A program made the position numbers and the translations under genes. From NCBI RefSeq assembly GCF_016026235.1, contig NZ_CP065613.1: 64,000 bases of DNA; one strand, written 5' to 3'. Positions 17,226 through 17,309 of this stretch are shown in pieces. The DNA comes from Escherichia coli. GTDB taxonomy: Bacteria > Pseudomonadota > Gammaproteobacteria > Enterobacterales > Enterobacteriaceae. The stretch's first letter is position 1, and each line of letters starts with the position of its first letter. The notes beneath the pieces were generated by a model. The model was not told where the DNA came from and searched no databases. It was given only the letters and a program-made list of their open reading frames with translations.

Positions 17226-17309
17226 ATGAGCTGGCCTGATGCAATCGTAACTCTGGGGATGGTATTCGCAGTAGCGTTTGTTGTGTACTCGATTTGTCGA
17301 TGGGGATAA
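17226..17309 (+). CDS. small hydrophobic peptide (27 aa, single TM)
   Basis: MSWPDAIVTLGMVFAVAFVVYSICRWG preceded by strong SD AGGAGGTGA; below track cut-off. Confidence 0.35.
   Translation: MSWPDAIVTLGMVFAVAFVVYSICRWG

Follow-up and report, generated by a model that had tools for sequence, protein, structure and literature searches.

A 27-codon gene in the early-left operon of an Escherichia coli lambdoid prophage probably encodes a single-pass membrane microprotein of an undescribed phage family

Small hydrophobic open reading frames (ORFs) are common in the accessory regions of phages, and a peptide of this kind is not surprising in itself. Is such an ORF a gene at all, and if so, what would its product do? 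We address this question for an ORF in a 64,000-nucleotide stretch of Escherichia coli DNA (RefSeq assembly GCF_016026235.1, contig NZ_CP065613.1; hereafter, the window). The ORF, at 17226-17309, has 27 codons and an AGGAGGT Shine-Dalgarno (SD) sequence, and it lies between a gene for a clamp-like protein and a gene for a DUF4222 protein (Table 1). A first-pass annotation made from the sequence alone had described it as an unannotated hydrophobic peptide resembling small membrane toxins or regulatory peptides. Its position, the spacing of its SD and its place between the two genes are all borne out by the window sequence. The explanation that we favour, with about an even chance of being right as a whole, is that the ORF encodes a 27-residue single-pass inner-membrane microprotein of an undescribed phage family.

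Taken by themselves, the ORF and its SD do not go beyond chance expectation in the window: AGGAGG followed by ATG at a distance of 4-9 bases occurs 4 times against 2.0 expected, 16 of 100 shuffled sequences reach 4, and the 7 kb from 14000 to 21000 alone contain 117 ORFs of at least 20 amino acids. The ORF rises above chance because it is conserved. Alleles gathered from IMG/VR loci comprise 70 nucleotide sequences and 48 peptide variants, and selection was analyzed using 58 distinct full-length alleles, which encode 36 proteins. In every one of them the ORF frame is uninterrupted, while each of the other two plus-strand frames contains stops in all 58. The ratio of nonsynonymous to synonymous substitutions (dN/dS) is 0.30 in the ORF frame and 0.28 once the six N-terminal codons that served as search pattern are excluded; in the other two plus-strand frames it is 0.8-1.9. 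Furthermore, start and stop remain fixed at 27 codons while the flanking genes vary. The ORF thus shows the marks of a small membrane protein gene, namely a length of no more than 50 amino acids, purifying selection and fixed boundaries.

Conservation also extends to distant relatives. A profile search of 1.84 billion representative proteins returned 62 clusters at E ≤ 1e-3, whose divergent members (e.g. MNWPEAFATVGVAFAVVLFFYILFKY..., MTWPEAFRDVGYALAAAIMIWALLKY... and MRWPDAFALVGLALAFALVIFLLLL...) keep W-P-[DE]-A-F-x-x-[VI]-G-x-A-x-A-x-A, followed by a hydrophobic stretch and then a basic residue. For three of them, the source was found to be a metagenomic contig on which small genes are tightly packed in arrays, and each overlaps the stop of its upstream gene, two by 4 nt and one by 1 nt; among these contigs, only one has neighbours with Pfam annotation, which comprise DNA ligase, DHHA1 and an intein-containing Thy1. 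On this comparative evidence, it is very probable that the ORF is a real protein-coding gene. We hold with much the same assurance, for the two claims jointly, that the family start is the ATG at 17226, which gives the 27-residue form, and not the start of a 40-residue form considered below.

The usual placement of the gene was determined from a survey of 141 distinct contexts of the homologous ORF. In 124 of them, the ATG and the upstream stop codon overlap; the overlap is ATGA in 113 contexts and a single base in the other 11. The upstream genes encode mosaic Ead/Ea22-like proteins (phrog_60, 660 and 924) with DUF551-type or other C-terminal domains, and most end in ...QEVNQ*, where the codons CAG GAG GTG AAT CAA TGA are themselves the SD; GGAGGTGAATCA or a near variant precedes the ATG in most of the contexts. 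On the other side, a DUF4222 gene follows 4 nt downstream in about 70 contexts and a mok/hok module about 150 nt downstream in about 17, while the remaining contexts have various genes, some overlapping the stop. The only SD-like sequence of the DUF4222 gene, GGGGA, is found inside the last codons of the microprotein gene, and its translation is thus probably coupled.

In the window, homology to hundreds of other prophages and phages begins at 17195-17199 (BLAST query position 596-600), indicating that the usual upstream gene has been replaced here by the clamp-like gene. What is left of it, as the alignment to BP-4795 and S1-IND confirms, is a relic of about 30 nt from an ea22/DUF551-type 3' end, which still supplies the SD and, read out of frame, creates the 40-residue option. 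The first-pass annotation had overlooked both this origin of the SD and the alternative start. A tail of the same kind is found in phage Phi24B (HM208303, 2600-2960, minus strand; locus L219), where the DUF550/DUF551 gene vb_24B_6c ends in ...PLPEPPQEVN with GGAGGT. There, the SD serves a GTG-started DUF1382 gene rather than the peptide, and an annotated 23-residue coding sequence (CDS), vb_24B_5c, lies within the tail overlap. Since the same tail and SD start a different gene in Phi24B, the SD-bearing tail is a shared module junction.

The interior of the gene varies far more than its surroundings. Compared with locus L218, the flanks are near-identical and the frame is unbroken, while codons 5-24 have diverged at about 40% of their bases. 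Among pairs of prophages with DUF4222 genes less than 2% apart, the peptide core differs by up to 45%. On average, amino-acid divergence is 31% for the peptide vs. 19% for its DUF4222 neighbour. These comparisons point to a core that behaves as a recombination-shuffled mosaic patch. Several rearranged forms were also identified. Variants P0014, P0015, P0018 and P0021 carry in-frame two-residue repeat expansions in the helix (...GIAMAMAMAMAMAVAL..., ...GIAVAVAVAVAL...), which add 4-8 residues to the transmembrane segment and look like hexanucleotide slippage in the GCG-ATG/GTG run. P0004, P0023 and P0028 are deletion fusions in which the transmembrane helix of the peptide continues in frame from the N-terminal portion of the Ea22/DUF551-type protein encoded upstream, giving a predicted membrane-anchored version of the upstream protein. 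Finally, in a few phages (IMG/VR, downstream class 'FAGINTK'), a second small hydrophobic ORF (...MSDDISLAMEGALAVVAVVGVYCLVVFLMDRLGN), which has no PHROG match, overlaps the stop of the peptide by 4-10 nt and puts two tiny transmembrane proteins in tandem.

The predicted product is a single hydrophobic helix, as the first-pass annotation had proposed. Mean Kyte-Doolittle hydropathy is 2.42 over the 19 residues 6-24, and the sum on the Hessa scale is about -1.1 kcal/mol (a rough figure). Given the family alignment, AlphaFold2 predicts a single helix spanning residues 3-26 (16-39 of the 40-residue form) with predicted local distance difference test (pLDDT) scores of 93-97. The family motif is M-[STN]-W-P-[DE]-A-F/I-x-x-V/L-G-x-A-x-A-x-A, followed by a hydrophobic stretch and (Y/W)...R/K, the conserved residues being W3, P4, D/E5, A6, G11, A15, A17, R25 and W26. 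Residue 2 is S, T or N in every case, and residue 5 is D or E except for a Q in one distant member; we infer that this S/T/N-x-x-D/E pattern at residues 2-5 forms an N-terminal helix-capping box. Trp3 and Trp26, which are invariant among close members and about 35 Å apart along the helix, may serve as anchors at the two membrane interfaces. Arg25 has the sole basic side chain; its placement in the cytoplasm would suggest an N-out/C-in topology. In distant members, the N-terminal half (W3-A17) is far better conserved than the C-terminal half, and small residues alternate at G11, A13, A15 and A17. A single conserved helical face, as in a GxxxA-type interface, was considered and rejected, as the helical moments of conservation and of small residues do not exceed those of permuted sequences (p = 0.37-0.88). 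Taken together, the predictions make a transmembrane microprotein likely.

The window region is a lambdoid prophage integrated beside mlrA. In E. coli RMDEC364, the 1,101-bp stretch around the ORF is identical (100%), and the 3 kb upstream match at 2,998 of 3,000 positions. The order of the RMDEC364 genes, leftward from the immunity region, is an XRE-type repressor, a helix-turn-helix protein, a string of small genes, a ParE-like gene, a 62-residue gene, SPFH, ORF6N, the clamp-like gene, the small ORF, DUF4222, a 44-residue gene, xis and int; from repressor to int, all are on one strand. The ORF sits in the distal, 'exo-xis'-type accessory part of the early-left (pL-type) operon, just before xis-int.

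We propose that the peptide is an early product, synthesized soon after infection or induction as a link in a chain of translationally coupled genes, and that its translation would also pass ribosomes to DUF4222. It would insert in the inner membrane as one helix (residues 3-26), where the conserved N-terminal half and the small residues G11, A13, A15 and A17 would contact a host or phage membrane partner. On this view, the peptide would help in host takeover or in exclusion as an accessory factor and would not be the free-standing toxin of a toxin-antitoxin pair. That it acts within the membrane by helix-helix packing with a membrane partner is a tentative proposal, with a chance at or slightly under one half. 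Between the two options of the first-pass annotation, a partner-binding 'regulatory peptide' seems more likely than a 'toxin'. A narrower idea, that 'WPEAF' peptides dock onto one specific host inner-membrane machine, is doubtful. If true, the peptides might exclude superinfecting phages, blunt a membrane-bound defence effector, or bias the lysis-lysogeny decision with an Ea22-type partner, and the swaps of helix core between near-identical prophages would reflect an arms race over the target.

Several observations weigh against parts of this explanation. The antisense frame that shares third codon positions mirrors the dN/dS of 0.30 and is open in 57 of the 58 alleles, so that the substitution pattern alone cannot choose the strand. 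A few alleles (about 3%) are frameshifted or truncated. The peptide is not found in the supplements of ribosome profiling (Ribo-seq) studies of enterohaemorrhagic E. coli (EHEC), whose cultures were uninduced and whose tables perhaps hold coordinates only. The topology is uncertain because both termini have about zero net charge. Conserved positions are not clustered on one helical face (p = 0.37-0.67), and since the alternating small residues form two opposite faces, self-assembly into an oligomer or pore fits equally well. As regards the strand, the antisense open frame spans 25-197 codons and ends at differing places inside unrelated flanking genes; the sense strand is chosen because its ATG, SD and stop are constant whereas the antisense boundaries vary. 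As regards expression, absence from uninduced cultures is uninformative for a repressed prophage operon.

The alternative that survives best, although unlikely, is a membrane-damaging, viroporin-like toxin that would give the early-left operon a Kil-type host-killing function, in which the helix would self-assemble via the stripes G11/A15 and A13/A17 and depolarize or permeabilize the inner membrane. The peptide resembles the type I toxins Ibs, ShoB, DinQ and TisB in size and composition, being a small hydrophobic membrane peptide of 27 residues (hydropathy 2.42) with a predicted single helix. Its alternating small residues yield two packing faces, and some variants have in-frame AM-repeat expansions of the helix. 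In addition, the host operon is repressed in the lysogen, so toxicity would be tolerated. However, the other features of a type I module were not found. A simple consensus scan of both strands from 13500 to 18000, which a weak promoter could escape, gave no promoter-like site near the ORF and only one at 13602. No terminator adjoins the ORF, and no Rfam family, antisense RNA or other, is present in 15000-19500 at E ≤ 1. There is neither a leader ORF nor a translation-blocking structure: around the start, the mRNA forms a less stable fold than its shuffled counterparts do (z = +1.65), the SD is exposed, and the start is coupled to the upstream gene in 124 of the 141 contexts.

Database searches gave the same picture. 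In Pfam-A, the 40-residue form matches no family, Hok/Gef (PF01848) included, even at E ≤ 10; PADLOC gave no match to it, and neither the 27- nor the 40-residue form has a match in Pfam-A, PHROGs v4, NCBIfam 20, PADLOC or the PDB sequences. In 933W-type phages, a complete mok/hok/sok module is present about 150 nt downstream of the ORF, and this argues against the peptide being such an element itself. Moreover, a strong SD together with coupling would lead one to expect high expression, the conserved core has no polar or charged residue to line a pore, and the gene occurs in up to five copies per genome and in the small-gene cluster of a virulent phage. Since neither an antisense promoter nor an Rfam RNA, a sequestered SD or any Hok similarity turned up, the locus does not look like a type I toxin-antitoxin module, and the 'small membrane toxin' of the first-pass annotation is not supported in that sense.

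Other classes were considered and set aside. A holin is rejected because the prophage has its holin, lysozyme and lysis genes in the late operon, downstream of Q, while the peptide is early-left, beside xis-int. A lipobox follows the consensus [LVI][ASTVI][GAS]C, with the mature protein after the Cys; here, Y-S-I precedes Cys24 (Ile at -1) and only RWG comes after it, and a lipoprotein is rejected. A leader peptide was likewise discarded. Deleting Phi24B's exo-xis region lowers degP and htpX expression (PMC10789677), a result that does not serve as evidence of membrane stress caused by the peptide, since the first 50 kb of Phi24B, exo-xis region included, lack it.

Rather less probable than a toxin is that the product in this prophage is the 40-residue protein from 17187 instead of the 27-residue peptide. 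The in-frame ATG at 17187 overlaps the TGA of the clamp-like gene (ATGA) and has CAGGAG eight nt upstream; it is the start used for RefSeq WP_255625547.1, and the same extension is joined to a divergent core in P0003/L218. On the other hand, the extension is seen in only 8 of the 141 contexts, all of the clamp type, and 120 of the 141 have no in-frame upstream ATG. It is an out-of-frame relic of the 3' end of another gene, AlphaFold2 predicts its 13 residues to be disordered, and the internal AGGAGGT is the stronger SD. Both forms may be made, and this alternative concerns only the N-terminus, not the nature of the gene.

It is improbable that the ORF is a translational relay only, i.e. that it carries ribosomes from the upstream to the downstream gene, prevents polarity and enables re-initiation while the peptide has no function. 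The start overlaps described above and the proximity of the next start (4 nt away or overlapping in about 80 contexts) fit a relay, as does the weakness of the GGGGA of DUF4222. A relay does not explain the constraint on amino acids (dN/dS about 0.3) or the retention of the motif in very divergent members; the hydrophobic character is kept across about 45% nucleotide divergence, and the RWG terminus is kept where no close downstream gene exists (933W and pPE4, with mok/hok about 150 nt off). The most improbable alternative is that there is no gene at all: the ORF would have arisen by chance in a conserved recombination linker that separates phage modules, or would be the shadow of a gene on the opposite strand. 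The chance-level ORF and SD, the equally low dN/dS of one antisense frame and ORF ends that are more conserved than the middle, as in mosaic boundary sequences, would agree with this, but all 58 alleles are open with identical boundaries despite core divergence of up to 45%, the antisense frame lacks any conserved start or stop and continues into flanking genes that are unrelated, and distant homologues on unrelated phage contigs keep the protein motif.

Table 1. Coordinates of the microprotein gene, its signals and its neighbours in the window
Feature	Position	Strand	Basis or remark
Microprotein gene, 27 codons, MSWPDAIVTLGMVFAVAFVVYSICRWG	17226..17309	+	ATG 17226-17228, TAA 17307-17309
Shine-Dalgarno AGGAGGT	17213..17219	+	Seven bases from GGAGG core to ATG
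Predicted transmembrane core, codons 6-24, AIVTLGMVFAVAFVVYSIC	17241..17297	+	Hydropathy, AlphaFold2
Optional 13-codon N-terminal extension, MKIEYQDAAGGES	17187..17225	+	PGAP start of the 40-residue CDS
Relic of ea22/DUF551-type 3' end, module junction, ~30 nt	17195..17225	+	BLAST boundary; BP-4795 and S1-IND alignment
Upstream beta-clamp-domain gene, 189 residues	16621..17190	+	PGAP name; PHROG 3007; weak DnaN matches
Downstream DUF4222 gene	17314..17556	+	Start 4 nt past microprotein stop
44-residue gene, phrog_3871	17560..17694	+	Next link of the tightly packed operon before xis

The neighbouring genes have features of their own. The clamp-like gene, which stands in for the ea22/DUF551-type gene in 8 of the 141 contexts, bears a doubtful label: its DnaN-type matches are weak (E about 1e-4, TIGR00663 and phrog_947), and its best PHROG (3007) is labelled RusA-like resolvase. 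The conserved, Cys/His-containing 44-residue ORF begins 3 nt past the DUF4222 stop and is annotated merely as hypothetical. Further along, an IS3-family insertion sequence of about 1.25 kb (17860-19108, minus strand; ORFs 18734-19072 and 17868-18707) interrupts the excisionase gene, leaving the xis fragments 17713-17859 and 19109-19219 with a 3-bp GTA duplication on the flanks. Its terminal repeats (TGAAGTGG...) presumably resemble those of IS911. The otherwise identical RMDEC364 prophage retains an unbroken xis; the copy in the window is probably excision-defective.

In the upstream direction, a 62-residue ORF (14816-15004) with the look of a two-helix membrane protein overlaps by 4 nt an SPFH/Band-7 gene (15001-15831), the product of which has an N-terminus resembling a lipoprotein signal (...LVGC); this membrane pair in the early-left operon (14816-15831) recalls NfeD/SPFH pairs. 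At 14148-14366, RefSeq annotates a 'ParE family toxin-like protein' (72 residues, GTG start) in the early-left operon of the identical prophage, with no obvious adjoining ParD partner. A separate ParD/RelE-ParE pair is found in the late region of the identical, RMDEC364-type prophage (L210, 18994-19528).

How widely the gene occurs, and how rarely it is annotated, was examined by nucleotide and protein comparisons. Of 5,426 complete E. coli genomes, at least 1,020 contain a match to a 109-bp segment; the matching places total 1,375, with up to five in a genome, and 150 lie on plasmids. By tblastn, about 90 records of coliphages and Shiga toxin (Stx) phages match, including 933W, VT2-Sakai, BP-4795 and Av-05, as do 180 plasmids (154 from Escherichia, 25 from Salmonella and 1 from Klebsiella). 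Of these plasmids, 174 are non-mobilisable, and the single one inspected is an IncY P1-like phage-plasmid. A homologue is also found within the small-gene cluster of one virulent Vequintavirinae phage. The carriers of the family are enterobacterial phages, namely lambdoid and Stx phages, P1-like phage-plasmids and the one virulent Vequintavirinae. A word-indexed protein search with the 40-residue form returned only four proteins. A scan of one genome per species returned three loci, two of which are short contigs filed under Segatella and Acinetobacter that are probably contaminants, and is thus uninformative on taxonomic spread.

As to its annotation, the Prokaryotic Genome Annotation Pipeline (PGAP) assigns a 40-residue hypothetical protein, WP_255625547.1, to the DNA of RMDEC364 that corresponds to 17187-17309. 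The description of the ORF as unannotated is thus accurate for the phage records and most RefSeq genomes and mistaken for this identical DNA. In BP-4795, 933W, Av-05 and most RefSeq genomes the homologous ORF is left out, and the only feature listed under the match is the DUF551 gene that overlaps it from upstream. No homologue is present in the K-12 prophages CPS-53, Rac and Qin, to which the search was confined, so no K-12 gene name or K-12 Ribo-seq data are applicable. Literature searches for peptide strings and for WPEAF/WPDAF gave nothing relevant, and the publications consulted on the exo-xis region make no reference to it.

Roughly a fifth of the complete E. coli genomes thus carry a gene, often in several copies and also in the EHEC Stx phages 933W, VT2-Sakai and BP-4795, that annotation pipelines almost always skip. 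Because the SD is inside the last codons of the Ea22/DUF551-type genes, deletion or tagging of their 3' ends would silently alter expression of the microprotein, and the overlap is a possible confounder for the genetics of phages with this arrangement. The compact, easily synthesized and highly conserved motif WP[DE]AF..VG.A.A.A offers a handy entry to small phage membrane proteins.

Among known systems, the closest in location are the accessory proteins of the exo-xis region of lambda and Stx phages, Ea22, Ea8.5 and Orf60a/61/63/73 (PMC10834534), with which the peptide shares its neighbourhood, pL-driven early expression and the usual direct coupling to an Ead/Ea22-like gene that has a DUF551-type tail. 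Those proteins are soluble, whereas the peptide is predicted to be transmembrane. With the type I toxins (Hok/Gef, TisB, Ibs, Ldr, ShoB and DinQ), it has in common small size, hydrophobicity and, in 933W-type phages, a place adjoining hokW/sokW; it differs from them in having no antisense RNA, mok-like leader or blocked mRNA, and in its strong, exposed SD and coupled neighbours.

In architecture, the peptide is like MgtS, MgrB, AcrZ, MgtR and PmrR, which have 20-50 residues, one transmembrane helix, short termini, aromatic residues at the interfaces and a basic residue at one end, and which are presumed to act by binding a larger membrane protein. Unlike them, it is encoded by a phage and expressed by coupling in a phage early operon, and it shows no sequence similarity to them in Pfam, NCBIfam or PDB. 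T4 Imm and Sp, P22 SieA and HK97 gp15 are phage-encoded, non-essential inner-membrane proteins for exclusion or immunity, found in accessory regions. The peptide resembles them as a predicted inner-membrane protein of such a region, but they are several-fold larger and have no sequence relationship to it. Other tiny hydrophobic proteins include the small membrane division inhibitors of the Caulobacter SidA type (29 residues), and lambda Kil and Rac KilR are functional analogues as early-left, host-interfering products of pL operons; the peptide has no homology to any of these and is likened to them by size or location alone. Within the known kind of small single-pass phage membrane proteins, the peptide represents a new sequence family that belongs to no curated one.

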